From assembly GCA_029260965.1 (NCBI GenBank), contig JAJDCG010000001.1, positions 376,012 through 440,011 on the forward strand: a stretch of DNA of 64,000 nt, written 5' to 3'. The translations under genes were made by a program, and so were the position numbers. This DNA comes from Candidatus Levyibacteriota bacterium. Lineage in GTDB: Bacteria > Patescibacteriota > Microgenomatia > Levybacterales > UBA12049. Of this stretch, positions 25,468-64,000 are shown in pieces (position 1 is the first letter of the stretch; every line of letters starts with the position of its first letter). The notes under the pieces are model-generated. The model worked only from the letters and a program-made list of their open reading frames with translations. It ran no database searches and was not told the DNA's origin.

Positions 25468-26226
25468 ATGAAAGATATTTTTTTGTCTGTTGTGGTGCCT
25501 TGTTATGATGAGATGGCCAATTTGCGCAAAGGCGTTCTGGATAAGATTGCGCATTTTTTGACAAAAAAGAGTTTTTCGTACGAAGTGATCATAGTTGATG
25601 ATGGATCAACTGACGGAAGTGTCGAGTTTATAGAAAAGTTTATCAAAGAAAACTCCCGTTTCAGGCTTATCAAAAATCCCCATTACGGCAAGGCAGGTGC
25701 CGTGACAACAGGAATGCTGCAGGCGAGTGGCAAATACAGGCTTTTTACTGATATGGATCAGGCAACACCTATTGAAGAGATTGACAAGCTACTTCCCCAT
25801 GTCAAAAATGGAGCAGATATAGTGATAGGCTCGAGAAAAGGTCAGCGTAAAGGTGCGCCATTTATCAGGCTTTTTGTTTCGCGCAGTTCTATAATTCTCA
25901 GAAAAATTGTTGTGGGGCTTCCGAGGATCTCTGATACTCAGTGTGGGTTCAAGCTATTTTCAGAAAATGCAGCAGTTGATCTTTTTGGCAAATTGATAAA
26001 AATCAAGAAAGGATTCAAAAAAGTTTCAGGACCTGCTGTGACATACGGATCAGACATAGAGCTTCTTTATTTGGCGGATAAGATTGGATATAAAATAAAA
26101 GAAGTCCCAGTTGAATGGCTTTTTGTTGAGTCGCGAAGAGTTAGTCCAGTGCAGGATTCTGTGCAGGGAGTATTGGATCTTCTGACAATAAAGAAAAATA
26201 TAGTCTCTGGAATATATGATGTTTAG
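25468..26226 (+). CDS. GT2 glycosyltransferase, DPM1/GtrB-like polyprenyl-phosphate sugar synthase
   Basis: LSVVVPCYDE, IIVDDGSTDGS, DxD-like TDMDQ. About 250 aa single GT-A domain without TM segments. Confidence 0.8.
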   Translation: MKDIFLSVVVPCYDEMANLRKGVLDKIAHFLTKKSFSYEVIIVDDGSTDGSVEFIEKFIKENSRFRLIKNPHYGKAGAVTTGMLQASGKYRLFTDMDQATPIEEIDKLLPHVKNGADIVIGSRKGQRKGAPFIRLFVSRSSIILRKIVVGLPRISDTQCGFKLFSENAAVDLFGKLIKIKKGFKKVSGPAVTYGSDIELLYLADKIGYKIKEVPVEWLFVESRRVSPVQDSVQGVLDLLTIKKNIVSGIYDV

Positions 26227-26240
26227 ACACTTTTGACAAT

Positions 26241-27446
26241 ATGATTCGAATCATGAGAACAAAAATAATGTTTTATTTTCTGCTTATTTTTGGGCTTTTT
26301 CTTTATTCGTTTACTCAAGTTGATCTTTCTCTTACCGTCTCGCGTAGTTTATTTCTGAATAATATAATTGACTCTTTTCAGCATATAGGTTTTTTCATGA
26401 GACCTCTGTCAACTTATATTTTTTCAGCAATAGTGCTAGCGCTTTTTGGTTTTTGGTTTTATTTTTTGAATCTAGCAAGGGAAAATAAAATAGATAAAAG
26501 AAATATTTGGAAAATCATAATTATTACGAGTTCAATACTAATTTTCTCATACAATGCTTTTTCGTATGATTTATTTAATTACATATTCGACGCAAAAATA
26601 TTCACCCACTATGGTCTCAATCCATATCTTCACAAAGCACTTGATTTTCCAGGAGATCCGATGCTCTCTTTCATGCGCTGGACGCATAGGGTGTATCCAT
26701 ATGGACCTGTTTGGCTTGCGCTTACTGTGCCCTTATCATACTTGGGGTTAAATTTTTTTATTCCGACATTTTTTCTTTTTAAACTTTTTATTGGTGCATT
26801 TTTTGTGGGCAGTATTTATTTTATAGGTAAGATATTACAAAAAATAGCTCCGAAAAAAGAAGTCTTGGGACTTGTTTTTTTTGGGCTCTCTCCATTGGTG
26901 CTCATCGAAAGCTTGGTGAGTGCGCATATTGATATCGTAATGGTGTTTTTCGTACTTTGGGCGACATACAGTCTGGTAAACAAAAAATATATTTTGTTGA
27001 TCCTACTGTTTTTAATCTCAATTGGGATAAAATTCGCAACTGTATTTATATCTCCAGTTTTTTTCTGGATTTGGATACGGAGAGGAAAGACGAGTTTGGA
27101 GAGCATGTTTTCATTTGCTGTAATTCTACTTATTTTGTCGGCACTTGTCTCATCCTACTACAGTGGCAATTTTCAGCCTTGGTATCTTCTCCTTCCTTTG
27201 AGTTTCGCTGCATTTGTGTCATATAAATATTACATTTTCATTCCATCTGTATTTGTCTCAATTTTTGCGATTTTTAATTATGTGCCCTATCTTTATTTAG
27301 GCAATTGGGACCCTCCAGTTCCTGAGTTTTTATTTTGGATACAAATAGGTTCAGTGATTGTCTCAATTTTAGCGGTGGCAGCTTATTTCTTATATCAAAA
27401 ATCAAAAGTTAAAAATCAAAAATATAATTCAAAAGGAAAAAGTTAG
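26241..27446 (+). CDS. GT-C membrane glycosyltransferase, GT87/DUF2029-like (polyprenyl-P-mannose-dependent mannosyltransferase-like)
   Basis: About 11 TM segments. First-loop motif SYDLFNY...GLNPY...YPYGPVW resembles the DUF2029/PimE-type D..Y...G.NPY...YPP signature. Confidence 0.5.
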   Translation: MIRIMRTKIMFYFLLIFGLFLYSFTQVDLSLTVSRSLFLNNIIDSFQHIGFFMRPLSTYIFSAIVLALFGFWFYFLNLARENKIDKRNIWKIIIITSSILIFSYNAFSYDLFNYIFDAKIFTHYGLNPYLHKALDFPGDPMLSFMRWTHRVYPYGPVWLALTVPLSYLGLNFFIPTFFLFKLFIGAFFVGSIYFIGKILQKIAPKKEVLGLVFFGLSPLVLIESLVSAHIDIVMVFFVLWATYSLVNKKYILLILLFLISIGIKFATVFISPVFFWIWIRRGKTSLESMFSFAVILLILSALVSSYYSGNFQPWYLLLPLSFAAFVSYKYYIFIPSVFVSIFAIFNYVPYLYLGNWDPPVPEFLFWIQIGSVIVSILAVAAYFLYQKSKVKNQKYNSKGKS

Positions 27447-27460
27447 CTTATTATACTATA

Positions 27461-28990
27461 ATGGTAGAAAGTTTTATGGAATTTATAAAAAGAAATTACT
27501 TTTCGATTTCAGTCATGGGGTTAGCAGTTTTGTACTTTACGCTTCGTCTTAATAATATTCTTTCGCTTCCTATATTCACTGATGAAGCAATTTATGTTCG
27601 CTGGAGTCAGATCGCATCAAACGATGCAAGCTGGCGGTTCATCTCACTTACCGATGGCAAGCAGCCAAGTTTTGTCTGGATCGCCATGATTTTGATGAAA
27701 TTTATCTCTGATCCGCTTTTGGCAGGTCGTTTGGTTTCTGTTTTTGCTGGTGTAGGTTCTGTCATAGGAATTTATTTTTTGGGAAGCGAGTTATTTAAAG
27801 ATCGGAAAATAGGTCTTCTGGCGAGTTTGATTTATGTAGTATTTCCATTTGCATTAGTGTATGACCGTCTCGCATTATACGATTCATTGGTTGGGATGTT
27901 TATCATCTGGGCAATGTATCTGGAGGTGCTTTTGGTGCGCAAGCCTCGTCTTGATACAGCACTCATATTGGGTATGGTAATCGGTGCTGGTATGCTTACC
28001 AAGACCAGTAATAATTTTGCGTTTATACTTCTTCCTTTTTCGCTTCTTTTGTTTGATTTTAAAAACAAAAAATGGAAGGAAAATCTTAAAAACTGGATAG
28101 TCTTTGCACTCATTGCAGTAGGACTGTCGCAGGTGATGTATGCAATTCTTAGACTTTCACCTTTTTATCACATTGTTTCAGATAAAAATGCAGTATTTGT
28201 TTACCCGATTAGTGAGTGGATCAGAAGTCCTTTTGCTTTTTTTACTGGCAACATAAAAGGACTTACGAGTTGGCTTTTTACATACATGAGTTATCCGTTT
28301 ATAGTTTTGGTGGTCTCTTCTTTTTTGATAGATAAAAAAACTTTTAGAAAAAAATTATTTTTGCTTGTATGGTTTGCTGCTCCGTTTTTCGCGCTTGCTC
28401 TTTTTGGTAAAGTAATATATCCGAGATTTATTCTTTTTATGAGCATGCCTCTTCTTCTTCTCGGAGCATATGCTTTGTTTAATCTGGTAAGAACAGCAGA
28501 AAAAAAATGGATGAAAATCACGATTCCTTTTGTCTTCCTGGTGGGTTTTATAATAAATGATTATTTCATTGTTACAGATTTTTCAAAAGCTTCCATACCG
28601 ACTGCTGATCGTGAACAATTTATCACGGATTGGCCAGCAGGTGTGGGTGTGAAGGAGACGGTTGAGTTTTTGAGACAAGCATCTAGCAATGAAAAGTTGT
28701 TTGTAGCAACACAGGGGACGTTTGGTCTTATGCCATATGCCTTGGAAATCTATCTTTCAGACAATCCAAATATAGAGATAAAAGGATATTGGCCGATTGA
28801 GGATCATCTAAGTCAGGAAATATTGGAAAAATCAAAAGAAAAGAAAACATATTTTATTTTTTACCAACCATGTCCTCCGTGCATGAAAACTGGTGTTGCA
28901 CCAAGTCAATATCCTCTTAAAGAGGTATTCCAAATAGAAAAAGAGCAAATGGGTAGTTATTACACTCTTTATGAAGTTCAAAACCTTTAG
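27461..28990 (+). CDS. GT-C membrane glycosyltransferase, ArnT/PMT-like (GT39/GT83-like)
   Basis: First extracytoplasmic loop carries FTDEAIY (DE motif) between TM1 and TM2. About 11 TM segments plus a C-terminal soluble domain. Confidence 0.55.
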   Translation: MVESFMEFIKRNYFSISVMGLAVLYFTLRLNNILSLPIFTDEAIYVRWSQIASNDASWRFISLTDGKQPSFVWIAMILMKFISDPLLAGRLVSVFAGVGSVIGIYFLGSELFKDRKIGLLASLIYVVFPFALVYDRLALYDSLVGMFIIWAMYLEVLLVRKPRLDTALILGMVIGAGMLTKTSNNFAFILLPFSLLLFDFKNKKWKENLKNWIVFALIAVGLSQVMYAILRLSPFYHIVSDKNAVFVYPISEWIRSPFAFFTGNIKGLTSWLFTYMSYPFIVLVVSSFLIDKKTFRKKLFLLVWFAAPFFALALFGKVIYPRFILFMSMPLLLLGAYALFNLVRTAEKKWMKITIPFVFLVGFIINDYFIVTDFSKASIPTADREQFITDWPAGVGVKETVEFLRQASSNEKLFVATQGTFGLMPYALEIYLSDNPNIEIKGYWPIEDHLSQEILEKSKEKKTYFIFYQPCPPCMKTGVAPSQYPLKEVFQIEKEQMGSYYTLYEVQNL

Positions 28991-30659
28991 TATTTTACTA
29001 GTCATTATTTTGCTTGCAATTTTTCTCCGGTTTTTTCGACTGGACAGTATCCCAAATGGGCTTTATCAGGATGAGACATCAATAGGTTATAGCGCATATT
29101 CGATAATTGAGACAGGAAAAGACGAGTATGGAAAAGATTTTCCTGTTTATTTTAAATCATTTGGAGACCAGAAGTTGCCTGTTTATATTTACTCGACAGT
29201 TGCATCTGTTAGGATGTTTGGTTTAACCCCGTTCGCAGTACGAACACCGTCCGCGTTTTTTGGCGTGCTGTCAGTTGTTGCATTTTTTTTCTTCGTTAAA
29301 TTTTTTACAAAAAGTGAAAATTTAGCACTCACATCAAGTTTTCTGCTTGCGATAAATCCATGGAGTCTTCATTATAATCGTGCAGCATTTGAGGTGAGCA
29401 TAGGACTTTTCTTGTTTATTGTTGGTGGATATCTACTTGGAAGATTTTTCAAAAACAGAACAAAGGGTGCATTTTTGGGAGGGACAATCTGTTTTGTATT
29501 GGCACTTTATTCTTATAATCTGACTCGACTTTTATCTCCGCTTCTTTTTCTTTTTTTTGTTTTTGTGTATAGAAATAAATTAAAAAGCGTATCAAAAAAA
29601 GAAGTAATTATAGCTATCACAGTTGGAGGATTTATGTTGATACCCTTTCTGACAAGCCTGATGGCTCCAGGTGGTGTTTCTTCAGCAGCAGGAACGCTTA
29701 TCAATTCGAGCGCAGTAGCTCAGGCACCCATTGCGGAATTGAGGGCATATATGCTTGCTCTCCCTACAGGTTTTGATAAGTTATTTTTTAATAAATATGT
29801 GCTTACTGGATGGCAATACGTCCAGAATATTTTTTCATATTTTTCTGTTGATTTTTTCTTTCTCAAAGGTTCTGGACACGGTAATCATGGAATGGGCAAT
29901 ATGGGATATTTTTATTTAGTAGAGTTGCCTTTTATTTTAATCGGAATTATTAGTTTTATCCGTAATAAAATTGCAGGGTTTGGCATGCTAATTGGATGGG
30001 GGGTAATTACAATTATGGTAGCCTCGCTTACTAGAGAAGCACCACATGCAACCAGGAGTTATTTTTTAACTGTCCCGTTAATTATTTTTTCAGGCGCTGG
30101 AGTAATTAGTGTATTTGAATATTTAAAAAAAGTTAAGTCGCAGTATTTAAGAAATTTATTAATTTTGATAATTTCTATATCAGCTTTTTATAACTTAACT
30201 TATTATTTTTTAAATTATTATATACGTTTTCCAGTTGCGTTTGCCGAAGACTGGAGGGCGCAGGACGTAGAATTGGTAAATTATCTAAAAAAAAATGAAG
30301 ATAAGTTTGAAAAAATAATTATTGATCCTAGGTCAAAATTTATTTACACTTCTCATCTTTTTTATACGAAATACGATCCTATTATGTTTCAGGAAACAGT
30401 AAAGCGATCACCTGATGATCCAGAGGGTTTTAGCGTTGTTAGATCTTATGGAAATTTTGAATACAGAGATATTGATTGGGAGGAGGATCTAAATTCACCA
30501 AAAACTTTAATAATTTCTTCTCCTGATTTTGCGCCTTATGATCTGGATGCGGATTTTATTGTTTTTCACCCTGAATATCCTGTTGCATTCGCAAAGGATC
30601 AGAAAGTAATACTGAATTTGGTGAATGATAAAGCATATGTCTTATTTGAAACAAAATAA
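28971..30659 (+). CDS. GT-C membrane glycosyltransferase, PMT_2-like paralog 1
   Basis: YQDETSIGYSAYSIIETGKDEYGKDFPVYFKSFGDQKLPVYIY and FGLTPFAVRTPSAFFGVL, shared with the ORFs at 43300, 44955 and 49830. C-terminal soluble domain with REAPHATRS. Confidence 0.65.
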   Translation: MKFKTFSILLVIILLAIFLRFFRLDSIPNGLYQDETSIGYSAYSIIETGKDEYGKDFPVYFKSFGDQKLPVYIYSTVASVRMFGLTPFAVRTPSAFFGVLSVVAFFFFVKFFTKSENLALTSSFLLAINPWSLHYNRAAFEVSIGLFLFIVGGYLLGRFFKNRTKGAFLGGTICFVLALYSYNLTRLLSPLLFLFFVFVYRNKLKSVSKKEVIIAITVGGFMLIPFLTSLMAPGGVSSAAGTLINSSAVAQAPIAELRAYMLALPTGFDKLFFNKYVLTGWQYVQNIFSYFSVDFFFLKGSGHGNHGMGNMGYFYLVELPFILIGIISFIRNKIAGFGMLIGWGVITIMVASLTREAPHATRSYFLTVPLIIFSGAGVISVFEYLKKVKSQYLRNLLILIISISAFYNLTYYFLNYYIRFPVAFAEDWRAQDVELVNYLKKNEDKFEKIIIDPRSKFIYTSHLFYTKYDPIMFQETVKRSPDDPEGFSVVRSYGNFEYRDIDWEEDLNSPKTLIISSPDFAPYDLDADFIVFHPEYPVAFAKDQKVILNLVNDKAYVLFETK

Positions 30660-32211
30660 AAACAACATACTAATAATTTTATTTTTGATCGTGGTTATGT
30701 TACCAGCGGTTTTTCCACTTCTGAGAGAGGGTTTTTTCGTAACAGATGATGCAGAGTGGATGATAATACGTTTTTCTGCATTTCATGAAGCATTTCGTGA
30801 TGGTCAATTTCCAGTTCGATTTTTAGGAAGGTTAAATCATGGGTTTGGCTATCCAGCACCCACATTTTTATATCCAGGTTTTATGTATATTGCAGAAATT
30901 TTTCATCTCCTTGGAGTTGAATTTTTAGAGAGTATAAAAATGGTTATTTTATTTTCTATTGTTTTGTCGGGTATATTTACCTTTTTTTGGTTGAGAAAGT
31001 TTTTTACTTTACTACCATCTTTTATAGGAGCAATTGTTTATGTTTATTCACCCTATCATTTATATGATGTGTATGTCAGAGGTTCTGTAGGGGAGGTGCT
31101 TGCGATTGCAGTCCTTCCTTTTATACTCTGGCAGATCGAGCGAAAAAGCGTTTTCTGGACAGCACTGAGTATTGGGCTTTTGATACTTTCCCACAATATA
31201 TTGGCTGCTATGTTCGTACCGCTAATTGTTGCATATATGATTCTTGATTGGTATGTGCTGAAAAAAACACAGACACATTTTTTTATTCAAACTGTTTTTT
31301 TTGGACTCGGAATATCTTCGTTTTTTTGGATACCAGCATTAACTGAATTAAGACATACAGTTTTTCTTGATACAAATATTTCTGATTGGAGTAGATATTT
31401 CGCAGATATAAATTTGATAGGAACCAAAACTTTGGCAGTTCTTCTTTTTGCATTGATCAGTATGGTAAGTAAAAAAATATCGATAAAAAAGCATCGTCTT
31501 AGTGTGTTCTTTTTTATAGTAGGTACCTTGGTAGTTTTTATGTCAAGTGTATTAAGTATGTTTATTTGGAAATTTTTTCCTGTTCAGTTTATCCAGTTTC
31601 CATACCGCTTTTTATCAATAGCGCTTATCAGTACGGCTTTTTTGATGGCAGTAAACATCACTGTTTTAACAGGGGTTAGGAAAAAGTTTTTTATTGGGTT
31701 GGTAGTTGTTATTTTAGCTATCCCATTTTTTGCTCGTATGAGGGCTATTGAGTTTATTGACAAAGGTAACGGGTTTTATGCGACTAACAATGCAACAACC
31801 ACCATACACGATGAATATATGCCTGTTTGGGTAAAGGAAATTCCAATGACTGGTGTGTATAATAAAGTAGAGATTATCAATGGCGATGGGGGTGTAAAAG
31901 ACTTGATAGTAACAAATGACATGATCAAATTTACGACAGATATAAAAAGTACTGCTGTTGCACGGGTAAACACAATTTATTGGCCAGGATGGAAAGTCAG
32001 TATTAATCAGGTGCCTGCTGATTTAGATTATTCAAATAAAAAGGGAGTAATGGACATAAAGGTTCCCAGGGGGCTATCTGTGGTTGAGCTGACTTTCGAT
32101 GAGACCCTGATGAGAATGTTTGCAAATACAGTATCTATGACTAGTATGATATTTTTGATACTTATTGCCTTGATAAACAAGAAAAATAAATTTTTATTAT
32201 GGAATTCGTAA
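30625..32211 (+). CDS. polytopic membrane protein, 6-pyruvoyl-tetrahydropterin-synthase-related family (putative GT-C)
   Basis: N-terminal DDAEWMIIRFSAFHEAFRDGQFPVRFLGRLNHGFGYPAPTFLYP fits the PTPS-related membrane family signature (DD..H..R...G.FP.RW...GYGYP.F.FY.PL). About 13 TM segments plus a C-terminal beta-rich domain. Confidence 0.5.
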   Translation: MIKHMSYLKQNKNNILIILFLIVVMLPAVFPLLREGFFVTDDAEWMIIRFSAFHEAFRDGQFPVRFLGRLNHGFGYPAPTFLYPGFMYIAEIFHLLGVEFLESIKMVILFSIVLSGIFTFFWLRKFFTLLPSFIGAIVYVYSPYHLYDVYVRGSVGEVLAIAVLPFILWQIERKSVFWTALSIGLLILSHNILAAMFVPLIVAYMILDWYVLKKTQTHFFIQTVFFGLGISSFFWIPALTELRHTVFLDTNISDWSRYFADINLIGTKTLAVLLFALISMVSKKISIKKHRLSVFFFIVGTLVVFMSSVLSMFIWKFFPVQFIQFPYRFLSIALISTAFLMAVNITVLTGVRKKFFIGLVVVILAIPFFARMRAIEFIDKGNGFYATNNATTTIHDEYMPVWVKEIPMTGVYNKVEIINGDGGVKDLIVTNDMIKFTTDIKSTAVARVNTIYWPGWKVSINQVPADLDYSNKKGVMDIKVPRGLSVVELTFDETLMRMFANTVSMTSMIFLILIALINKKNKFLLWNS

Positions 32212-33941
32212 AAAAGAATATTTTTATAATACTACTTTTGATTTTGTCTTATTGGTCTTTGAAGCCACTATTTCACTCTAATTTTTTTCCAATACATGAC
32301 GACATACAGGTTGCAAGAGTTTTTGAAATGCACAAGGCACTAGATGACGGCATGTTTCCTGTGAGATGGAGTCAGGGTCTTGGTTATAATTTTGGATATC
32401 CGATATTTAATTTTTATGCACCCCTAGCTTATTATCTTGGGGCATTAGTAATGATATTGGGATTAGACGCTTTGTCTGCAACAAAAGTCATGATGGGGGT
32501 GGGAATATTGCTTGCTTTGGTTGGGATGTACTTGTTTGCTAAAGAGATTTGGGGTAGAAGGGGTGCTTTTATTTCAGCACTTTTATATTTATATGCACCA
32601 TATCATGCAGTGGATATTTATGTTAGAGGAGATGTTGCAGAGTTTTTTGCGTATGGTTTTATCCCGTTTGTTTTCCTTGGGATTTATAAAATTTATAAAA
32701 CAACAAAGGAGTATGTTGATGTTAAAAACAAAAATAAAATTTCTGCTCTTAAAAAGAAAATATGGAATTGGGTAATTCTTGCCTCTTTGTCGTTTGCAGC
32801 TGTTATACTTTCTCACAACCTAAGTGCGATGATGGTGACACCATTTTTACTTATATTTTCCTTTTGTTTGTATATTAGCTTGCGAAGAAAAGAAAAATTG
32901 TACAATCCTTATTTTATTTTTTTGAGTTTGATAGTGGGTATTCTAATTGCAGGATTTTATTGGGTACCAGTATTTCCGATGATGCAGTACACAGATGTAT
33001 TGTCAGTGGTAGGTGGAGGATCATATTACGGAGATCATTTTGTATGTATTGGTCAATTGTGGGATAGCCCTTGGGGATTTGGTGGTTCTGCGCCTGGATG
33101 TATTGATGGTATTTCACTAAAGATAGGAAAACCTCATTTGCTTCTTGGATTGACATCTCTCATTATGCTAAGTTTTTTTAGAAAAAAGCTAAAATATAAC
33201 AAAAAAGTAGTATGGTTTTTTACTTTTTCATTTGTTTTTTCAATTTTTTTGACAATTGAACAATCAAAATTTATTTGGGACATTTTATCTCCAATGGCAT
33301 TTTTTCAATTTCCTTGGAGATTTTTACTTGTTGCTACTTTTTTTATCTCATTCTTGGGTGGGGGACTTTTTTATGTTTTGGATATGATTATTTCAAATAA
33401 TAAAAGACTTAATCCTTTTTATACACTTTTCCTATTAACAATAGCATGTGCGATCTTGTTTTATAATGCAAAGCTTTTTAATCCACAAATTTTTAATACC
33501 AAGACAGTCGAGGATTATACATCTTTTGACGAGGTATCATGGCGAGTGTCAAAGCTATCTGATGAATATATGCCACCAGATTTTTTTAGACCCTTGGGCA
33601 TTCGGGTCGTGCCCAAAAACAAAATAATGAACACCATGCAAGTTAAAATTTTGGAGCAAATAGAAAAAACAAACCATCTCTTTGCAGTCGTTGAGGCATC
33701 GTCTGAATCAAAACTGACTGTAAATCTTGCCTATTTTCCTGGGTGGCATGTCTATATCGACGGTAGACAAGAGTGGTTTAGTTACTTCAACCAGGGTTTA
33801 ATCATAAATATTCCAGAGGGTAGGCATGATCTAGACATTGTTTACCAGCAAACACCCGTACAGATAATGGGAAACATACTTACTATCACTGGATCACTAA
33901 TACTTCTTATTGGTATAATTAAACTCAAGAAAGATAAATAA
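32199..33941 (+). CDS. polytopic membrane protein, PTPS-related family, tandem paralog
   Basis: HDDIQVARVFEMHKALDDGMFPVRWSQGLGYNFGYPIFNFYAPLAYY. C-terminal YFPGWHVYIDG parallels IYWPGWKVSIN in the upstream paralog. Confidence 0.5.
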   Translation: MEFVKKNIFIILLLILSYWSLKPLFHSNFFPIHDDIQVARVFEMHKALDDGMFPVRWSQGLGYNFGYPIFNFYAPLAYYLGALVMILGLDALSATKVMMGVGILLALVGMYLFAKEIWGRRGAFISALLYLYAPYHAVDIYVRGDVAEFFAYGFIPFVFLGIYKIYKTTKEYVDVKNKNKISALKKKIWNWVILASLSFAAVILSHNLSAMMVTPFLLIFSFCLYISLRRKEKLYNPYFIFLSLIVGILIAGFYWVPVFPMMQYTDVLSVVGGGSYYGDHFVCIGQLWDSPWGFGGSAPGCIDGISLKIGKPHLLLGLTSLIMLSFFRKKLKYNKKVVWFFTFSFVFSIFLTIEQSKFIWDILSPMAFFQFPWRFLLVATFFISFLGGGLFYVLDMIISNNKRLNPFYTLFLLTIACAILFYNAKLFNPQIFNTKTVEDYTSFDEVSWRVSKLSDEYMPPDFFRPLGIRVVPKNKIMNTMQVKILEQIEKTNHLFAVVEASSESKLTVNLAYFPGWHVYIDGRQEWFSYFNQGLIINIPEGRHDLDIVYQQTPVQIMGNILTITGSLILLIGIIKLKKDK

Positions 33942-55859: not shown

Positions 55860-56655
55860 AATTAATCTTCTCTCTGTAGTCATTCCCTCATACAAACAGG
55901 AGAAAACAATTGTAAAGGATATCAAAAACATAGTAAAAAATCTCAAAAATCTTGGTGTTAAACATGAGGTGATAGTGGTGATTGATGGAAAAGTTGATAA
56001 AACACTTGAAAAGCTTAAAAAAGGTTTTGGTTCTTTGCTTAGGGTTCAAAGACGATCCAAGTCAAAGATCCAAGAGCTGAGATTAAAGAACTTGCGCATA
56101 ATTTATTACGGAGAGAATCAGGGTAAAGGTCATGCTGTTCGAATAGGCATGATGACAGCCAGAGGTGATGTGGTAGGATTTATGGACGCTGGGATGGACA
56201 TACATCCTGCAGGATTTAGGATGCTCCTCAATCACATGGAGTGGTATGATGCGGATGTGATTGTCGGTTCCAAACTTCATCCTGTATCTCAGGTCAGGTA
56301 TCCCATCTACAGGAAAATTCTGTCCAAAGGTTACAGAGGAGTGACGCGTCTCCTGTTTGGATTCAAAGTACGTGATACACAGGTTGGTCTCAAGTTTTTT
56401 AGAAAAAAAGTTGTTCGCAAAGTCTTTCCAAGGCTTCTGGTTAAAAAATACGCTTTTGATATAGAAATTCTCGCAGTCAGCTATCAATTGGGATTTAAAA
56501 AGATCTATGAAGCACCAGTGATGATAGTGTTTAAAGAAAATAGTATTGACAAGAAAGGCCTGTTAAAGATAGTCTATCTGATGCTCATAGATACGGCAGC
56601 AGTATTTTACCGCATAAAATTCCTTGATTATTATAGAAAACGGCGTAGATCTTAG
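55837..56655 (+). CDS. GT2 glycosyltransferase, DPM1/GtrB-like
   Basis: LSVVIPSYKQEKTI, VIVVIDGKVDKT, FMDAGMD. Start chosen at the ATG at 55837; the ORF opens at 55807 inside the flippase gene. Confidence 0.75.
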   Translation: MPRVKEFKINLLSVVIPSYKQEKTIVKDIKNIVKNLKNLGVKHEVIVVIDGKVDKTLEKLKKGFGSLLRVQRRSKSKIQELRLKNLRIIYYGENQGKGHAVRIGMMTARGDVVGFMDAGMDIHPAGFRMLLNHMEWYDADVIVGSKLHPVSQVRYPIYRKILSKGYRGVTRLLFGFKVRDTQVGLKFFRKKVVRKVFPRLLVKKYAFDIEILAVSYQLGFKKIYEAPVMIVFKENSIDKKGLLKIVYLMLIDTAAVFYRIKFLDYYRKRRRS

Positions 56656-56717
56656 ATCCTCGATCTTAGATCGTAGGAGAATGATCTCCCAAGAACCAAG
56701 AACTAGAAACTAAATAT

Positions 56718-57869
56718 ATGGACAAAGACCCAGCATCAAAGACCCAAGAACCAGGATCTGAGGACAAAATCCTCCGGATTTTGATCCTCAACTGGCGAGA
56801 TCCTGCTCATCCATTAGCAGGCGGTGCTGAGTATTCTATGTACGAGCATGCTTTGTATTGGAGGAAAAAAGGTGCGCATGTCACATGGGTTGGGTCAGCT
56901 TTTGAAGGCGCAAAAAAAAACGAAACCAAAAAAGGGATTAAGTTTTTACGGATGGGATCGCATTTCACAGTGCATTTGAAGACTTTTTTCAGATACATGA
57001 GGGGTGAGTTCAGGGATGCCGATATCGTTATAGACTGTTTTCATTTCGTACCATACTTCACACCCCTTTATGTTCGGAATAAGAGTATAGTTGCCTGGAT
57101 CAATGAACCTGCGAAGAATGCGTGGTTCAAAAACATCTTTTTCCCCGCAAGCCTTATTGGATTTATATTTGAACCGTTGTTTTTTGTACCTTACCGCAAG
57201 GCTCAATTTGTGACATCAGCCAAATCGATAAAGAAAGAATTAATAAAGCTGGGGGTAAGAAGAATAAAAGTTATACCACATGGGATTGAAATACTGGATA
57301 TGGACCGCATAAAAAAAGAACAATCACTTACTCTTATTTATCTTGCGCAAATTACAGAAGATAAAGGTATTGAAAATGCCCTGCGGGCATTTTCAATCAT
57401 AAGTCATAAATCAGAAATCATAAATCCTGTTCTCTGGGTTGTCGGCAAGGCACCAGACAGTAAATATCTGAAAAAAGTTAAGAAACTGGTCAGGGATTTG
57501 AAATTAGTAAAAAATGTTAAATTTTTTGGGTATGTTGATAAAAGACAGAAATTTACACTTTTGAAAAAAGCCTGGATTCTGGTGCATCCGTCTGTCAGAG
57601 AAGGATGGGGGTTAAATGTAATTGAGGCTGCAGGTGTTGGTACTCCGAGTGTTGGGTATGATGTGGTGGGATTGAGAGATTCGATAAAAAATGGCAAGAC
57701 AGGACTTTTGTCAGAGGAGAATCCTGAAGATATGGCAGAAAAATGCATGAAGCTTGTACGTGATAGGGATTTTTATGATAAACTGTCTGTTAATGCAAAG
57801 GAGCATGCAAATAGTTTTTCCTGGCAAAAAGCAGGTAAAAAAAGCCTCCAAATTATAAAAAGTTTATGA
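56718..57869 (+). CDS. GT4 glycosyltransferase
   Basis: VREGWGLNVIEAAGVGTPSVGYDVVGLRDSIKNGKTG matches the EX7E motif. Confidence 0.8.
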   Translation: MDKDPASKTQEPGSEDKILRILILNWRDPAHPLAGGAEYSMYEHALYWRKKGAHVTWVGSAFEGAKKNETKKGIKFLRMGSHFTVHLKTFFRYMRGEFRDADIVIDCFHFVPYFTPLYVRNKSIVAWINEPAKNAWFKNIFFPASLIGFIFEPLFFVPYRKAQFVTSAKSIKKELIKLGVRRIKVIPHGIEILDMDRIKKEQSLTLIYLAQITEDKGIENALRAFSIISHKSEIINPVLWVVGKAPDSKYLKKVKKLVRDLKLVKNVKFFGYVDKRQKFTLLKKAWILVHPSVREGWGLNVIEAAGVGTPSVGYDVVGLRDSIKNGKTGLLSEENPEDMAEKCMKLVRDRDFYDKLSVNAKEHANSFSWQKAGKKSLQIIKSL

Positions 57870-58681
57870 AAAAGTCCCCTCTGGTTTCAGTAATTATTCC
57901 AACTAAAAATTCACGACTCACTATCAAAAAATGTCTTGAGAGTATAAAAAATCAGAGCTATAAAAAGATTGAGCTAATAGTTGTAGACAACAACTCGACT
58001 GATGATACCAAAAAGATTGCCTGGAAATATACAAAAAATGTTTTTAATCGAGGACCTGAGAGATCCGCACAAAGAAACTATGGTGCATCCAAATCTAGAG
58101 GCGCATATTTACTCTTTGTAGACAGCGATATGGTACTTTCCCGAAATGTGGTCAAAGAGTGTGTTGAGGTTGCGCAAAATTCAAATGCAAAAGGCATAGT
58201 AATTCCAGAGAAGTCAATTGGAGTTGGATTCTGGGCGAGGTGCAAAGCGCTTGAGCGAGAGTTTTATGTAGGAGTCGACTGGATGGAAGCTGCCCGCTTT
58301 TATGAGAAAAAAATATTTGATAAAACTAAGGGGTTTAATGAAAAGATGATAAGTGGAGAGGACTGGGATTTGTCGCAAAGAGTTGGTAGAATAGATAAAT
58401 TGGGGAGAATAAAAAGTTTTATATTACATGATGAAGGAAATCTTAGGTTTTTTGAGCTTCTTAAAAAGAAATATTATTACGCAAAGAATATTAATAAATA
58501 CAAGATCAATAAATCAGATATTTCTAATATAGCAAAACAAACTAGTGTCATTAATAGGTATGGTCTATTTTTATCAAAACCTGGTAAGTTATTGAATAAT
58601 CCAATAATCGGATTAGGTATGATTTTAATGAAGACTTCTGAGTTTATTTCTGGAGGAATGGGGATAATTTTAAAAAAATGA
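57866..58681 (+). CDS. GT2 glycosyltransferase
   Basis: VSVIIPTKNSRLTI, LIVVDNNSTDDT, VDSDM. Confidence 0.8.
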   Translation: MKKSPLVSVIIPTKNSRLTIKKCLESIKNQSYKKIELIVVDNNSTDDTKKIAWKYTKNVFNRGPERSAQRNYGASKSRGAYLLFVDSDMVLSRNVVKECVEVAQNSNAKGIVIPEKSIGVGFWARCKALEREFYVGVDWMEAARFYEKKIFDKTKGFNEKMISGEDWDLSQRVGRIDKLGRIKSFILHDEGNLRFFELLKKKYYYAKNINKYKINKSDISNIAKQTSVINRYGLFLSKPGKLLNNPIIGLGMILMKTSEFISGGMGIILKK

Positions 58682-59373
58682 AAAATATTATCAATGAAAA
58701 ACCTAATGGAAAATTGACAGGCAGATTGAAATTCACTGTTAAGAGTTTTGTAAAGAAAGAAGACATAAAAAATAAAAAAGTTTTGGATATCGGGTGTGGC
58801 TATGGCTGGTTTGAATTAAATGCATTAAAAAATGGTGTAAAAGAGATCGTAGGAATTGAAATAACCAAGTCCGATTTAAAAACTGCGAAAGAAAATATTC
58901 ATGATGAAAGAGCTTTGTTCAAAGTTGCTGGAGCTCTCAAATTACCCTTCAAAGACAATTATTTTGATACTGTTGTTGCTTGGGAAGTAATAGAGCATAT
59001 ACCAAAAGGCACTGAATACAAGATGTTTAAAGAAGTGAGTAGAGTATTGAAGAGGAATGGTACTTTTTATTTATCGACTCCTTTTGACTCTTTCTTTTCG
59101 AATTTTTTTGACCCAGCATATTGGCTAATAGGTCATAGGCATTATTCAAAGAAGATGTTGATTGACTTTTGTAAAAAAAATAATCTCGAAGTAGAAAAAA
59201 TATTTGTTAGAGGGGGATACTGGAATTTAGTTGGGTTATTAAATATGTATTTTTCTAAATGGATCCTCAGAAGAAATCCATTATTTCAAAAATACTTTGA
59301 GGAAAAAGAAAATCAAGAGTTTGGTAGTAAAAATGGATTTATGGATATTTTTGTCCAATATAAAAAAAGATAA
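58678..59373 (+). CDS. class I SAM-dependent methyltransferase
   Basis: Motif I VLDIGCGYGWF. Post-I acidic residue (EI). Motif LKRNGTFYLSTP. Confidence 0.75.
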   Translation: MKNIINEKPNGKLTGRLKFTVKSFVKKEDIKNKKVLDIGCGYGWFELNALKNGVKEIVGIEITKSDLKTAKENIHDERALFKVAGALKLPFKDNYFDTVVAWEVIEHIPKGTEYKMFKEVSRVLKRNGTFYLSTPFDSFFSNFFDPAYWLIGHRHYSKKMLIDFCKKNNLEVEKIFVRGGYWNLVGLLNMYFSKWILRRNPLFQKYFEEKENQEFGSKNGFMDIFVQYKKR

Positions 59374-59490: not shown

Positions 59491-60474
59491 ATGAGCATAG
59501 AAAAAAAAGGTAACGGTAAAATATCTATAATTATTGTTAATTGGAATGGAAAAAAATGGTTAAAAAAATGTATTTCTTCATTGGAAAGCCAAACCTACAA
59601 AAATTTTGAAATAATTTTTGTTGATAATGCATCTACGGATGGCTCTGTTGCGTATGTAGAGAAAAATTTTCCAAAAGTAAAAATAATACAAAATAATGTG
59701 AATCTCGGGTTTGCAGGTGGAAATAACGTTGCCATAAATATGGCACAGGGAAAATATATATTGCTTATAAATAATGATACATGGGTAAACAATAATTTTA
59801 TTGAATTATTGATAAATTTTTACATATCGAACAAGTTCAATGTTGTATCCCCTAAGGAGTCTGATTACTCAGAGAAGAAAAGAGACGACTATGCATCAAA
59901 AATAGACGTATTAGGTCATTCAGTATACATTCGTAAAAAACTTCAAAGCGATACATCATTTTTCTTAACGGGAGTTTGCTTATTTTTTTCAAAAAAATTT
60001 TATCAAGAAACAGGAGGCTTTGATAACAATTTTTTTATGTATGCAGAAGAGGTTGATTGGTTTTGGAGACTTCGACTTTTTGGAAAAACTTTTTCTTATG
60101 CAGACAATATTTATATAAATCATGCAGGCGCTGGTAGTACTGGAACGGGCATCCAATATAATTTGTTTTTGTGGCGTAATCAAAATACGCTTCAGATGCT
60201 TCTCAAGAACTATAAATGGTATAATTTATTGTGGGTATTACCAGTTTACTTTTTTCAAAATATTATAGAAATAATATTTTTTTTACTGCTTCTTAAGCCA
60301 GGGATCGCTTATTCATACATTCGAGGCTGGTGGTTTAATGGTAAAAATTTTAATAAAATTATGAAAAAAAGAAGATGGGTACAGAAAAATAGAGTCGTAA
60401 ACGATAAGAAAATTTTTTTAAGTATGTATTTTGGTTTAGGAAAATTAAAACATCTACTAAATCATAGAATATAA
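59491..60474 (+). CDS. GT2 glycosyltransferase (rhamnosyltransferase-like, C-terminal TM)
   Basis: ISIIIVNWNG, IIFVDNASTDGS, YAEEVDW. C-terminal hydrophobic helix. Confidence 0.8.
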   Translation: MSIEKKGNGKISIIIVNWNGKKWLKKCISSLESQTYKNFEIIFVDNASTDGSVAYVEKNFPKVKIIQNNVNLGFAGGNNVAINMAQGKYILLINNDTWVNNNFIELLINFYISNKFNVVSPKESDYSEKKRDDYASKIDVLGHSVYIRKKLQSDTSFFLTGVCLFFSKKFYQETGGFDNNFFMYAEEVDWFWRLRLFGKTFSYADNIYINHAGAGSTGTGIQYNLFLWRNQNTLQMLLKNYKWYNLLWVLPVYFFQNIIEIIFFLLLLKPGIAYSYIRGWWFNGKNFNKIMKKRRWVQKNRVVNDKKIFLSMYFGLGKLKHLLNHRI

Positions 60475-60479
60475 TTAAT

Positions 60480-61181
60480 ATGAAAGTTTTAGAAATTGGC
60501 TGTGGACAGGGTTTTTTTTCATCCGTTCTTTCAAGCAGTAAAGATAAAAAAATCACAGGGATCGATTTATCAAGTAAAGATATTGATATTGCAAAAAAAA
60601 GATATCCTCATATCAATTTTTTATGGATGAATGCTGAAAAACTAAAATTTAAAAAAGATATGTTCGATGAAATTTATGCATTGGACGTCTTGGAGCATGT
60701 AGACAATCTGGAACGAGTTCTAAGTGAAGTTTCAAGAGTAATTAAAAAAGGAGGTTTATTTTATGTCAATATACCTGCGGAAAAATCAGAAAAATGGTTA
60801 TTAAAATTGAGACCAAATTACTTTAAGGAAATACATCATGTCAGGATTTTTAAAAATGAACAATTAGATAACTATCTAAAAGGAAAAGAGTTTATATTAA
60901 TCAAAAAAAAGCCGAGGGGTTTTATTCAGCATATTGAATTATATTATCTATTTACATCTAAAAATAAAGCAAATAGTCAATTAAGTGTAGGAAATTGGAG
61001 AAGTAATTGGATGTCCAAGTTCGTACATATTACTTTACTTTTTTTTGATCCTATTGTATTGAAAACCCCCCTAAGGTACTTGCCAATTTGGTTAATTACC
61101 CTTCCCTTAGGAAGTATTGTAAATGGCATAGGAAACAAATTTTTTCCAAAATCTATTTATTATATATTTAAAAAGAAATGA
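60480..61181 (+). CDS. class I SAM-dependent methyltransferase (paralog)
   Basis: VLEIGCGQGFF, IKKGGLFYVNIP. Confidence 0.75.
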   Translation: MKVLEIGCGQGFFSSVLSSSKDKKITGIDLSSKDIDIAKKRYPHINFLWMNAEKLKFKKDMFDEIYALDVLEHVDNLERVLSEVSRVIKKGGLFYVNIPAEKSEKWLLKLRPNYFKEIHHVRIFKNEQLDNYLKGKEFILIKKKPRGFIQHIELYYLFTSKNKANSQLSVGNWRSNWMSKFVHITLLFFDPIVLKTPLRYLPIWLITLPLGSIVNGIGNKFFPKSIYYIFKKK

Positions 61182-62392
61182 TTAAAATTCTGTACTCTCC
61201 ATGTCATTATAAATTTAGTAAAAGTGAAGGATCAGAATCATATTGGGCATATAATATTGCTGATAAGATTGCATCTGTTAATTATCGATCAATAGTTGTA
61301 ACTGGTTTTACTGAAGATAAAAATAAAAAATATCGAATTATAGAATTACAAAAAAATAAAACTGAGATTGATCTTTCGCTTATTAATGCATTGAAATTTA
61401 ATTTTTTATATTTTTTTGCTACAATATTTTTTTTGAAAAAGGAAAATTTTGATCTTGTCCATCATGTTTTACCATTTGGAATAGGTAGTACATTTAATCT
61501 TTCTGTAATACTTGGATTGACCAACAATAAGCCATTTATTGTTGGACCGATTCAAGGAGTGCTTCAGTATAGAGACGATGACATAAATAACTCAAACATA
61601 AGAATTGCTAAGCCTAACAAATCTATAAATTTTACATTAATTTTACAAAAAATTTTTTCATTTTTAACACAAAAATTATCATATAAAACTTTAAAAAAAT
61701 CTGATAAAATTGTTGTTATCGACGAGTGCTCAAAAGCTATTTTAATTAAGAATAATGTTCCGAGAGAAAAAATTATAATTATATCTCCAGGTATTGACTG
61801 CAATAAATATAAAAAGAATATAAGGAAAAAAATTAGACATAAAAAGATTATAATGGTTTCAAGTTATTTATTAAAAAGAAAAGCAATAGATTTTGTTATA
61901 AAGTCATACGATGAAGTGAGATATCTAAGAAATAATACAGAGTTAATAGTTGTTGGAGATGGGCCTCAGAAAAAAAATCTAGAAAAATTAGTTAAAAGAT
62001 TAAAATTAAAAAATTCAGTAAATTTCGTTGGACACGTTCCAAATAATGAAATAAGTAAATTCTATAGAAAGGCAGATATATTTGTAAGCATGAGTAGGGC
62101 TGAGAGCTGGGGACAGATGTATCTTGAGGCGATGGCTTCAGGCCTACCTATCGTCTCATCAAGAAATGTAGGATCTGAGAGTATAATAAAAGATGGAGAA
62201 TTTGGATATTTGGTAGATCAGGAGGATTATAAAGAGCTTGCAAAAAAGATAATATATCTAATAGACCATCCAGACGTGATGGAAAGATTTGGGAAAAAAG
62301 CAAGAAAAGAAGTAGAGGAAAAATATGATTGGGATCGTGTAGTTATACCAAAATATGTTAAACTGTATAAACAGCTAATAAATGAAAAGTAA
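61178..62392 (+). CDS. GT4 glycosyltransferase
   Basis: SRAESWGQMYLEAMASGLPIVSSRNVGSESIIKDGEFGYLV matches the EX7E motif. Confidence 0.8.
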   Translation: MIKILYSPCHYKFSKSEGSESYWAYNIADKIASVNYRSIVVTGFTEDKNKKYRIIELQKNKTEIDLSLINALKFNFLYFFATIFFLKKENFDLVHHVLPFGIGSTFNLSVILGLTNNKPFIVGPIQGVLQYRDDDINNSNIRIAKPNKSINFTLILQKIFSFLTQKLSYKTLKKSDKIVVIDECSKAILIKNNVPREKIIIISPGIDCNKYKKNIRKKIRHKKIIMVSSYLLKRKAIDFVIKSYDEVRYLRNNTELIVVGDGPQKKNLEKLVKRLKLKNSVNFVGHVPNNEISKFYRKADIFVSMSRAESWGQMYLEAMASGLPIVSSRNVGSESIIKDGEFGYLVDQEDYKELAKKIIYLIDHPDVMERFGKKARKEVEEKYDWDRVVIPKYVKLYKQLINEK

Positions 62393-63059
62393 ACAAATTA
62401 TTAATCAGCAAAATAGGTATTATGCAACTTATGCAAAAATACTGAGAAATCCAAGATATCGTAAGTCCTGGGATTATATATTTAAAAATATTAAAGGAAG
62501 AAAAAAAATTCTTGATATTGGATGTGCAGATGGGGAGTTTTTGACTCCATTTATTGAAAAAGGATATGATTGTTATGGATTGGAAGCAATCGACGAAGCG
62601 ATAAGAGATTCAAGAAAAAAAGGAATTAAGGTAAAAAAAGGTTCTTTTTTAGAAAAGTTTCCTTTTAGAGATAACACTTTTGACATCGTGTTTGCAGGAG
62701 AGGTGATTGAGCACACTTTTGATGATGATTATTTTCTCCGAGAAGCTAATAGAGTTCTTAAAAAGAATGGATTACTTATCATTACAACTCCAAATCTTGT
62801 TTCATTAGGTAATAGATTCTTGATGCTTTTAGGTCGTTTGCCTCGATTTGCATACGCCCCTTTTCATTACAGAATATATACCCCCGAACTTTTAAAAGAC
62901 AAGCTTACTAGTAATAAGTTTATAATAAAAAAATTTGAGTCGAGCTATATTCTTATATCTACTTATTTTAATAAATACGCTGGCTATTTTGGGGAAGCAA
63001 TGGGATCTGTGATTCCATTTTTTGGTGAACATATGATTTTATTTTCAAAAAAAAGCTGA
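62382..63059 (+). CDS. class I SAM-dependent methyltransferase (paralog)
   Basis: ILDIGCADGEF, LKKNGLLIITTP. Confidence 0.75.
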   Translation: MKSKQIINQQNRYYATYAKILRNPRYRKSWDYIFKNIKGRKKILDIGCADGEFLTPFIEKGYDCYGLEAIDEAIRDSRKKGIKVKKGSFLEKFPFRDNTFDIVFAGEVIEHTFDDDYFLREANRVLKKNGLLIITTPNLVSLGNRFLMLLGRLPRFAYAPFHYRIYTPELLKDKLTSNKFIIKKFESSYILISTYFNKYAGYFGEAMGSVIPFFGEHMILFSKKS

Positions 63060-63070
63060 ACGAATATATA

Positions 63071-64000
63071 TGAACCGTTATTGGAAAATGTTTAAAAAGA
63101 TTTATGACAAACATTTTTTCATAATCAACCTCATAACATCTATATACATCTTTTTTCTTATAATAAGTTTTTTTATCCCAGAGGCTAAATTTTTTTTGGT
63201 TGGGGAATATGTATTTTCTTTTGACTATCCAGGACACATACGAAACATAATAGCTGACTACAATAACGATTACGGAGAGTTGCTTAGTAGCACACAGTGC
63301 ATTGGTTGCCCTGACTTTTATCATTATTCACGTTGGTATTCACTTGTATTGTTTTTAATACTACAGTCAGGTGTGGTAATTGGACTCCATCCATTTATGT
63401 CATATCTTTTTTGGGCGATCTCTATGCAGATGTTGTCATTGTATATAAGTTTTAATTTATTTTTTAATAAATTAAATAAATTTGCATTTATTATTAGTTC
63501 AGCACTATTAATTCTATTTCCATATAAATATGCACTTTTGGGAAGTGGGGGCTTCTATGCATTAATCTATGCAATTATGATTATTTATCATTCGATGATC
63601 GTCTACATAATAAAAGATTTAAGTAAATATAAAAAAAGTTATATTTTGAAATACTCATTTTTTATAGGTGTTGCAGCTTCATTTTTCTTAAATATAGGAA
63701 TAGGCTATTTCCCAATTGTAGTTTATTCAACTCTTATAATTTTTTTGTATTTTTGGAAGCAAATTTTCAAAAATATAAGGAAATTTATTTTGTTGCTGAT
63801 TCCAATAGGGATATTGCCTATTTTATTAAATTTGCCAATGGTGCTTTCGGTTATATTAGCTAGTAAAAATGCGTCAAGGGTTTATCTAGACTTCTCGTCG
63901 TATGATTTTTTAGATGCATTTACTGGAGGATTATTCTTCTATAGCGATTTAAAATTAGGAGGAGCATTGCTAATTCTTTTATTGATTTATTTTGTATCGG
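63071..64000 (+). CDS. polytopic membrane protein, 3' end beyond window (possible polymerase / GT-C)
   Basis: Reading by hand, the frame stays open from the ATG at 63071 to the window end and encodes a highly hydrophobic multi-TM protein. It is not in the supplied ORF track, presumably because no stop lies in the window. Confidence 0.35.

Follow-up and report, generated by a model that had tools for sequence, protein, structure and literature searches.

A co-directional glycosylation locus of about 44 kb rich in GT-C-type membrane proteins in a Candidatus Levyibacteriota bacterium

A 64,000-nucleotide (nt) stretch of Candidatus Levyibacteriota bacterium contig JAJDCG010000001.1 (positions 376,012 to 440,011; the window) carries, from position 25468 to its end and beyond, a glycosylation locus of about 44 kb with at least 13 supported genes for polytopic glycosyltransferases (GT) of the GT-C type and one further polytopic orphan. 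We hold, with moderate confidence, that it is a locus for envelope glycan assembly or decoration, in which most sugar transfers would be made outside the cytoplasmic membrane by these GT-C enzymes. What is observed is a set of family, fold and motif assignments, a gene order and its conservation across relatives. Genes are named below by the first position of their open reading frame (ORF) in the window (Table 1).

The original prediction described a one-strand glycosylation locus after a tRNA-Glu gene, with many overlapping genes. The window contains 33 plus-strand ORFs head to tail between 25468 and 64000, the last one truncated by the window end, and a single minus-strand ORF among them; 20 of the 32 junctions overlap or abut, seven of them with 4-nt overlaps under a longest-ORF rule. 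Families were assigned by Pfam and NCBIfam profile scans of all locus genes, and the Pfam scan reproduced, gene by gene, the predicted tallies of nine GT2, four GT4, two Wzx-type flippases, one GalE and three S-adenosylmethionine (SAM) methyltransferases. A Logan contig carrying the locus begins near the tRNA-Glu gene. Past the window end the locus extends for about 5.5 kb, as read from Logan contig L001, which matches the window exactly along 11,619 bases and encodes, in order, the full 63070 protein of 555 amino acids (aa), a 708-aa protein, a 346-aa protein and, on the minus strand, a 511-aa protein. Scans for promoters and terminators gave counts at chance level and did not delimit operons. 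In our reading the locus divides into two parts, with the conserved GT-C core at about 25.5-52 kb and a 3' Wzx-type oligosaccharide module at 52-65 kb; two more GT-C-like genes follow at about 64.8-69.5 kb.

The predicted count of ten GT-C-like proteins in the window (six PMT_2/GT39-like, two PTPS_related, one YfhO and one GT87/MptA-like) holds, and 48374 is added to it. The PMT_2 threshold is passed by 27461, 43300 and 44955, and that of PMT (PF02366, 22.7 bits) by 43300 and 27461. The sub-threshold proteins 28971 and 49830 are related to 43300 and 44955 by BLAST and hhalign (1e-57 to 1e-97) and are clearly their paralogues, with BLAST values of 1e-60 to 1e-81 and hhalign at 100% for both; in BLAST, 28971 (QDET motif) matches 44955 at 5e-81 and 49830 matches 43300 at 5e-74. 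The relation of 26241 to TIGR03459 is at the superfamily level only (44.6 bits for a cut-off of 439.4, and no Pfam match). By hhalign this protein is unrelated to the other GT-C families of the locus; a syntenic relative in locus L002, whose best window match is 26241, carries PF26314 (MptA_B_family). For the 48374 family there is neither a Pfam nor an NCBIfam model. Among 1.84 billion representatives it comprises 315 clusters at E<=1e-30, and its few named members come from Roizmanbacteria, Woesebacteria and Microgenomates, with one labelled Limnocylindrales. The extended locus encodes 16 non-flippase polytopic proteins (the 195-aa and 346-aa proteins included), six without a Pfam match and three below threshold, and these gaps in Pfam show that GT-C enzymes are under-annotated.

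Profile-profile comparison (hhalign), run on a small alignment of each family drawn from 80 related loci, joins the PMT_2, PTPS_related, YfhO and 48374 families. PTPS_related proteins align with YfhO at 98-99% (98.2% for 30625, 99.4% for 32199), and the 48374 family with both the PMT_2 group and PTPS_related/YfhO at 96-97%. The link to the PMT_2 group is 91-96% for 32199 and less even for 30625 (30-96%), which reaches 96.5% with 46644 and 48374 and 30-90% with the other PMT_2 profiles. All 11 candidates in the window have 7-10 transmembrane (TM) helices by a crude hydropathy count, and of six family alignments (two PMT_2, two PTPS_related, YfhO and 48374), five show a conserved acidic residue after TM1. 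All seven PMT_2-like paralogues have an invariant Asp directly behind TM1, usually as Asp-Glu. Among 71 GT39 sequences D37 and E38 do not vary, nor does D39 among 73 members of the 48374 family, and D42, D34 and D62 are conserved in the two PTPS_related and the YfhO alignments; in the GT87-like 26241 the loop-1 acidic residue was not placed. A sequence search of solved structures was nearly blind, returning only ArnT at E 0.015 for 43300 and nothing for 48374, 26241 and 40035, and fold comparison was therefore used instead. For 48374 and 43300 the predicted models show a helical bundle together with an alpha/beta domain at the C-terminus, and that of 43300 (predicted local distance difference test, pLDDT, 92.5) compares with STT3B at 22.3 and with ArnT at 22.0. 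The modelled proteins are thus predicted to have the three-dimensional GT-C fold. Proteins of this type would use sugar donors linked to polyprenyl phosphate or diphosphate. The counter-case raised with the original prediction, that these proteins are transporters, is ruled out by the profile links, the loop-1 Asp and the predicted folds together.

Relatives were taken from a one-genome-per-species scan that gave 80 loci around the GT39 orthologue, with the neighborhood sampled to ±10 kb. In Candidatus Levybacteria/Levyibacteriota genomes, 43300 has orthologues (57-69% identity) annotated as GT39 or ArnT-like, and the titled lineages among the 80 loci are mostly Levybacteria, together with Roizman-, Shapiro- and Blackburnbacteria and Microgenomatus. 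Thirty-three of the loci span 20 kb or more; in these, the roughly 21.6 kb surrounding the orthologue contain 6-12 (median 10) large polytopic non-Wzx ORFs, mostly assignable to the families of the window, and 92% of the ORFs there are co-directional. The recurrent order is GT4, YfhO, GT2, synthase-like GT2, PMT2-c, PMT2-d, the 48374 family (1-3 copies), PTPS_related, GT2c, GalE, a small protein and GT87-like, and gene order is kept in relatives from several candidate phyla. In the closest relative (69% identity) the genes between the PTPS gene and the 195-aa gene are arranged as in the window, the minus-strand DUF5652 ORF included, and the two sequences part directly after the 195-aa gene.

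Why does the locus keep so many GT-C paralogues? They are 24-40% identical to one another, 43300 and 44955 sharing 40% and the orthologues of each 50-69%. Own orthologues of 43300, 44955, 40035 and 48374 are found in 42-80 related loci (71 for 44955), and the YfhO orthologue of 40035 is present in 31 of 34. The low identity between paralogues, together with own orthologues for each, argues that the duplications are old and the copies maintained; for 43300 and 44955, the sequence comparison points to distinct conserved roles.

Two further observations concern the relatives. The L003 and L004 loci encode an identical GT39 protein and differ by a three-gene insertion between two GT2 genes (HAD hydrolase, Asp/Glu racemase and DUF4037; about 2000-4550 in L004), a case of strain-level structural variation. 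Many records with Levybacteria-type loci (L006, L009, L012 and others) are titled 'uncultured Gammaproteobacteria', a title that is wrong to judge by gene content, and further titles among the 80 loci give no more than 'bacterium'.

A donor component of the DPM1/GtrB type had been postulated, and two short GT2 proteins, 25468 and 33941, resemble polyprenyl-phosphate sugar synthases and are candidates for this function. In the Protein Data Bank (PDB), 25468 best matches DPMS (5mlz, 1.7e-16), GtrB (5ekp) and ArnC, and 33941 best matches ArnC (9bhc, 2.2e-14), GtrB (5ekp) and DPMS (5mlz). Their NCBIfam matches are PgfS, ArnC and PpgS among others for 25468, with PgfS at the top though far below its cut-off, and AglJ, PgfS, ArnC and PpgS for 33941, all far below the equivalog cut-offs. 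The two other GT2 proteins tested best match GmaR or a generic archaeal GT2, not synthases. The candidates also lie close to GT-C genes: 25468 is followed by the GT87-like 26241 and then by 27461, and the orthologue of 33941, present in 47 related loci, adjoins a GT-C-like ORF in 37 of them.

The absence of a WecA/WbaP-type initiating transferase, as predicted, was confirmed for the 64-kb window and 10 kb downstream: PF00953 and PF02397 have no match in the scanned ORFs (all locus genes, nearly all large window ORFs and five downstream ORFs). Within the same 74 kb, Wzy_C, EpsG, Wzz and GtrA families have no match either. Nor was an initiating transferase, Wzy or Wzz found among 66 unclassified large polytopic ORFs of the related loci, which matched only GT87 (six ORFs, PF09594), DUF2079, PMT_2, PMT, DUF6541 and one TgpA_N. 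The original prediction had preferred a Gtr-type over a Wzy-type logic. The two synthase-like GT2 proteins and the missing initiator, Wzy and Wzz agree with this; however, a pure Gtr-type logic does not explain the two Wzx proteins, the four GT4, the seven further GT2 and the three methyltransferases.

From these components a mechanism can be proposed, in which we infer the donor lipids, the identity of the sugars, the assignment of flippases to substrates and the acceptor. GalE would supply UDP-hexose epimers, and 25468 and 33941 would load single sugars onto polyprenyl phosphate at the inner face of the membrane. The lipid-phosphate sugars would then be flipped by a Wzx-type protein or another flippase, and each GT-C paralogue (PMT_2/GT39-like, PTPS_related/YfhO-like, GT87/MptA-like or of the new 48374 family) would use its loop-1 Asp to add a sugar at a particular position of the acceptor glycan. 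In parallel, the GT2, GT4 and methyltransferases of the 3' half would build a methylated lipid-linked oligosaccharide, exported by Wzx, and the low-GC part of this half (58.4-64.8 kb) may vary between strains.

Several points weigh against this proposal. The two Wzx proteins, the GT4, the other GT2 and the methyltransferases imply a cytoplasmic assembly of lipid-linked oligosaccharide, and therefore an initiating transferase is likely to be encoded elsewhere in the genome. Wzx1- and Wzx2-type ORFs are rare near the GT-C core of relatives (3 of 34 related loci each). In addition, 25468 and 33941 have none of the membrane helices of GtrB, ArnC and DPMS, and no GacJ-like or GtrA-like partner was recognized in the locus scans. 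A soluble GT-A protein with a Wzx-type flippase and a GT-C enzyme is a recognized variant in Streptococcus pyogenes (PMC8035078). Finally, enzymes of the YfhO and PMT types glycosylate proteins or polymers (PMC12041528), so family membership does not fix the acceptor.

For the acceptor, a wall polysaccharide or a membrane-anchored lipoglycan is most likely, rather than proteins. This is favored by the presence of four GT-C families, an MptA-like one included, and by the lack of a Ser/Thr-rich candidate substrate encoded in the window or 10 kb downstream. It is also favored by the comparison with other systems: to our knowledge, only the mycobacterial arabinogalactan and lipomannan pathways employ so many GT-C enzymes on one or two donors, and in mycobacteria the single lipid-linked donor made by Ppm1 feeds many of them. 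A bolder version, which we regard as speculative and doubtful as a whole, is that Microgenomates (Levybacteria and relatives) make a lineage-defining envelope glycopolymer almost wholly outside the cytoplasm with a dozen or more GT-C enzymes, one or two donors and no phosphoglycosyl transferase or Wzy; a bacterium with a genome well under 1 Mb would then independently parallel the arabinogalactan and lipomannan strategy of mycobacteria, with at least one unrecognized GT-C family and a glycan used perhaps for host attachment.

A serious rival, though of clearly lower probability than an envelope glycan, is that the locus is a general protein O-glycosylation system in which GT39/PMT-like and YfhO-like GT-C enzymes act on Ser/Thr residues of secreted, S-layer or pilus proteins. 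The paralogues would then differ by protein class or extend the O-glycan, as in the Ppm1/Pmt, Pgf and GtrB/PgtC2 systems. That 43300 and 27461 exceed the PMT threshold speaks for this explanation, as does the loop-1 Asp-Glu pair typical of PMT enzymes. The scans of the locus GT-C proteins with Pfam gave no match to a MIR domain, which bacterial Pmt enzymes are not known to have. The conserved GT2c family best matches GmaR, and the top NCBIfam match of 25468 is PgfS, whose operon likewise combines two GT-C enzymes with a GT-A and an epimerase (PMC12041528). However, no suitable substrate is encoded nearby, no known system of this kind has as many as 13 GT-C enzymes from four families that are unrelated or only distantly related, and the MptA-like enzyme suggests polymer extension.

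The 3' half raises a different explanation, namely an ordinary Wzx/Wzy polysaccharide cluster with its initiator elsewhere, the orphan polytopic proteins as Wzy and the GT-C enzymes as side-chain decorators. The 52-65 kb region does have the classic GalE, Wzx, GT2, GT4 and methyltransferase genes. Its GC content falls to 26-31% over about 58.4-64.8 kb (58380 to about 64780; L001 6001-12400) for 35-38% on both sides, and this block runs through a methyltransferase, GT2, methyltransferase, GT4 and methyltransferase to the 555-aa orphan, a near-orphan 9-TM protein with the usual look of a Wzy gene. The block looks like a strain-specific or horizontally acquired cassette. The orphan itself, searched as a partial query among 5.8 billion proteins, has one homologue (39% identity) and a weak hhalign link to PTPS_related, and is either a GT-C enzyme or a Wzy-like polymerase. 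Nevertheless, we consider such a cluster improbable: the missing Wzy_C, EpsG, Wzz and initiator, in the 74 kb and among the unclassified polytopic ORFs of relatives, speak against it, the GT-C battery and not the Wzx cassette is conserved across 33 genomes, both Wzx types are rare there, and at best the 3' third of the locus would be accounted for.

It is very unlikely that the locus is a recent or rapidly duplicating tRNA-adjacent island with redundant or decaying GT-C copies, as its start 43 nt after tRNA-Glu, the atypically low GC of its 3' block, the varying copy number between genomes (1-3 for the 48374 family) and the three-gene insertion separating L004 from L003 might suggest, because all ORFs are intact and tightly packed, the divergent paralogues sampled have own orthologues in tens of loci and conserved catalytic-type residues, gene order is kept in several candidate phyla, and the main part does not differ in GC from the flanks.

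Table 1. Features of the glycosylation locus and its 5' boundary, with positions in the window and supporting matches
Feature	Position	Strand	Evidence and remarks
tRNA-Glu (CTC)	25351-25424	+	ARAGORN; 5' boundary of the locus; 43 nt before first gene
Short soluble GT2, polyprenyl-phosphate sugar synthase-like	25468-26226	+	PF00535 90 bits; no predicted TM
GT87/MptA-like polytopic protein	26241-27446	+	401 aa; 8 TM; TIGR03459 E 9e-12, far below equivalog cut-off
PMT_2/GT39-type GT-C	27461-28990	+	PF13231 55.3 bits; PF02366 30.9 bits; TDEA motif after TM1
PMT_2-like GT-C	28971-30659	+	Paralogue of 43300/44955; PMT_2 22.9 bits (threshold 26.1)
PTPS_related polytopic, GT-C-like	30625-32211	+	PF10131 42.8 bits; conserved D42 after TM1
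PTPS_related, YfhO-like C-terminus	32199-33941	+	PF10131 40.3 bits; YfhO C-terminal 25.7 bits; conserved D34
Short soluble GT2, polyprenyl-phosphate sugar synthase-like	33941-34660	+	No predicted TM; overlaps start of 34599
Wzx/MOP-type flippase 1	34599-36104	+	PF13440 156 bits; NCBIfam MOP flippase 2.5e-30; 11 TM
GT2 (GT2c family)	36091-36996	+	PF00535; best PDB match GmaR 4.8e-18
GT2	36993-37898	+	PF00535, PF13641
GT2	37898-38659	+	PF00535 76.7 bits
DUF5652 small protein	38660-38908	-	PF18893 80.4 bits; sole minus-strand gene
GT4	38980-40038	+	PF00534 62.8 bits
YfhO-family GT-C	40035-42326	+	763 aa; PF09586 87.4 bits; conserved D62
GT2	42339-43292	+	PF00535, PF13641
GT39/PMT-type GT-C	43300-44958	+	PF02366 48.3 bits (threshold 22.7); WDEA motif; most conserved locus gene
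PMT_2 GT-C	44955-46643	+	PF13231 38.5 bits; 40% identical to 43300, BLAST 1e-114
Divergent PMT_2-like GT-C	46644-48392	+	No Pfam match; hhalign 100% to 28971, 43300, 44955; HDEV motif
GT-C of family without Pfam model	48374-49837	+	Eleventh in-window GT-C
PMT_2-like GT-C	49830-51371	+	PMT_2 20.8 bits, below threshold; IDEV motif
195-aa protein	51359-51946	+	5 TM; no Pfam or NCBIfam match
UDP-glucose 4-epimerase GalE	52087-53064	+	TIGR01179 379.7 bits (cut-off 262.3); PF01370
GT4	53127-54158	+	PF00534 112.7 bits
23S_rRNA_IVP four-helix-bundle protein	54193-54576	+	PF05635 115.7 bits; passenger
Wzx-type flippase 2	54573-55859	+	PF13440 48.8 bits; 11 TM
GT2	55807-56655	+	PF00535 66.3 bits
GT4	56718-57869	+	PF00534 117.2 bits
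GT2	57866-58681	+	PF00535 91.4 bits
SAM methyltransferase	58678-59373	+	PF08241; start of low-GC cassette
GT2	59491-60474	+	PF00535 104.3 bits
SAM methyltransferase	60480-61181	+	PF08241 78.1 bits
GT4	61178-62392	+	PF00534 137.7 bits
SAM methyltransferase	62382-63059	+	PF08241 66.2 bits
Orphan polytopic protein	63070-64000 (cut)	+	555 aa in L001; no Pfam match; 9 TM
708-aa PTPS/YfhO-like protein	past window end		hmmsearch 1e-9; hhalign 97.7%
346-aa membrane protein	past window end		L001 contig
511-aa paralogue of 48374	past window end	-	2.5e-63

Some minor genes of the locus deserve comment. The 195-aa protein aligns weakly by hhalign with the middle TM part of PMT_2 proteins (79-86% for 28971, 46644 and 49830; lower for 43300 and 44955), and its counterpart in L003 lies directly after the PMT2-f orthologue; it may serve as an accessory subunit or a flippase-like partner, or be what is left of a gene. 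The position and strand of the DUF5652 ORF are kept in the closest relatives L003 and L004 (5335-5595), so it is probably a real gene and not a chance ORF. Of 34 related loci, 32 have a member of the GT2c family; the best solved match of this family, Listeria GmaR, is a flagellin O-GlcNAc transferase and offers a lead towards protein glycosylation. The 23S_rRNA_IVP gene sits between a GT4 gene and the second Wzx gene, overlapping the latter by 4 nt.

In the 25 kb upstream of the locus, both strands carry genes for housekeeping and transport (Lon, CCA-adding enzyme, RecJ, two cation antiporters, an AspRS/LysRS-type synthetase, Nramp and TruB), so the clustering of glycosylation genes does not hold for the window at large. 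Among the upstream genes, a PAP2-like phosphatase (26 bits, just below threshold) is followed by a DgkA-type kinase (10658-11618); the pair could recycle the polyprenyl carrier lipid used by the locus. An Acyl_transf_3 membrane acyltransferase (118.9 bits; 16632-17651, minus strand), of a type that O-acetylates surface glycans, lies 8 kb upstream. A 781-aa protein (5884-8229) combines a signal peptide with an outer domain of some 480 aa and, at the C-terminus, seven TM helices; it matches neither Pfam nor the GT-C profiles of the locus. On the 3' side, L001 encodes a PsbP-like protein and a Kelch/M23-like secreted protein, unrelated to the glycosylation locus. The latter (L001 17874-20678, just past the locus) is a large Kelch-repeat protein of 971 residues as called, the L001 sequence ending inside the gene; it is M23-peptidase-like by eye, has no family match, and lies in DNA of 41-47% GC, well above the local average.

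Every component of the locus belongs to a known kind of protein. Several features nevertheless appear to be new. A genome well under 1 Mb holds at least 13 GT-C genes together in a single co-directional locus, and these many enzymes stand beside only two candidate donor synthases. The GT-C-dense core is conserved among Levybacteria and other lineages of Microgenomates related to them, and at least one GT-C family is without a database model. A literature search on candidate phyla radiation (CPR), Patescibacteria, Microgenomates or Levybacteria with GT-C, GT39, ArnT, mannosyltransferase or envelope found no description of such a locus, within a searchable library that does not prove absence. 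As far as we know, CPR bacteria have minimal genomes and their surface chemistry is almost unstudied. The locus amounts to about 8% of a 549,591-bp contig encoding a protein that is identical to 48374 over 99% of the length of 48374. Its size and conservation mark the product as central, plausibly for envelope integrity or host-cell contact. The two candidate lipid-sugar synthases, the GT39 orthologue as a marker and the new 48374 family are leads that can be used directly.

How does the locus compare with known systems? Lipid A modification by ArnC/ArnT was rejected as a counterpart: there are no ArnA, ArnB or ArnD genes, and the sequence match to ArnT is marginal. CPR bacteria of this group are not known to make lipid A. 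Wzx/Wzy-dependent O-antigen and capsule clusters resemble the 52-65 kb region in its GalE, Wzx, GT2/GT4 and modifying enzymes and in its low-GC, strain-variable block; differently from them, the locus has no recognized initiator, Wzy or Wzz, and a conserved GT-C battery dominates it.

Protein O-glycosylation by GT-C enzymes is known from the streptococcal PgfS-PgfE-PgfM1-PgfM2 and GtrB/PgtC2 systems and from actinobacterial Ppm1/Pmt (GT39) (PMC12041528). The GT39/PMT Pfam matches with the loop-1 Asp-Glu, the YfhO-type proteins and the set of GT-A, epimerase and GT-C, as in Pgf, are shared with the locus. However, those systems have one or two GT-C enzymes and Ser/Thr-rich substrates encoded nearby or acted on, none of which are seen here, and they are without Wzx, GT4 and methyltransferase modules.

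Multi-component systems of the Gtr type include GtrA/B/C, CsbB-GtcA-YfhO, GtlA/GtlB, GacI/J/K/L and the lactococcal CsdAB/CD/EF (PMC8035078). The locus would follow their three-part logic, with candidate GT-A proteins that may make a polyprenyl-phosphate sugar, a putative flippase and polytopic GT-C enzymes with an acidic outer-loop motif. The YfhO and PMT_2 families of GT-C are common to both, and a variant with a soluble GT-A and a Wzx-type flippase is known from S. pyogenes. Known Gtr-type systems have one GT-C enzyme each and are few per genome, whereas at least 13 GT-C genes lie in one 44-kb locus here. These are served by only two candidate donor synthases, with no GtrA-type flippase or GacJ-like partner recognized, and they include PTPS_related, MptA-like and Pfam-less families in addition.

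The envelope enzymes of Corynebacterineae comprise Ppm1 together with PimE, MptA/B/C, EmbA/B/C and AftA-D, and mycobacteria have an arabinogalactan gene cluster. The present locus has no orthology with these (the MptA match reaches 44.6 bits for a cut-off of 439) and no genes of an arabinose-donor pathway; it belongs to a CPR bacterium, and the density of GT-C genes in its genome of well under 1 Mb is far higher. The likeness lies in the overall arrangement that we propose: many GT-C enzymes would draw on one or two lipid-phosphate donors and polymerize or branch an envelope glycan outside the membrane. As in Corynebacterineae, the GT-C genes are partly clustered, a GT4 may act first on a lipid anchor, with no phosphoglycosyl transferase involved, and an MptA-like protein is among the enzymes.

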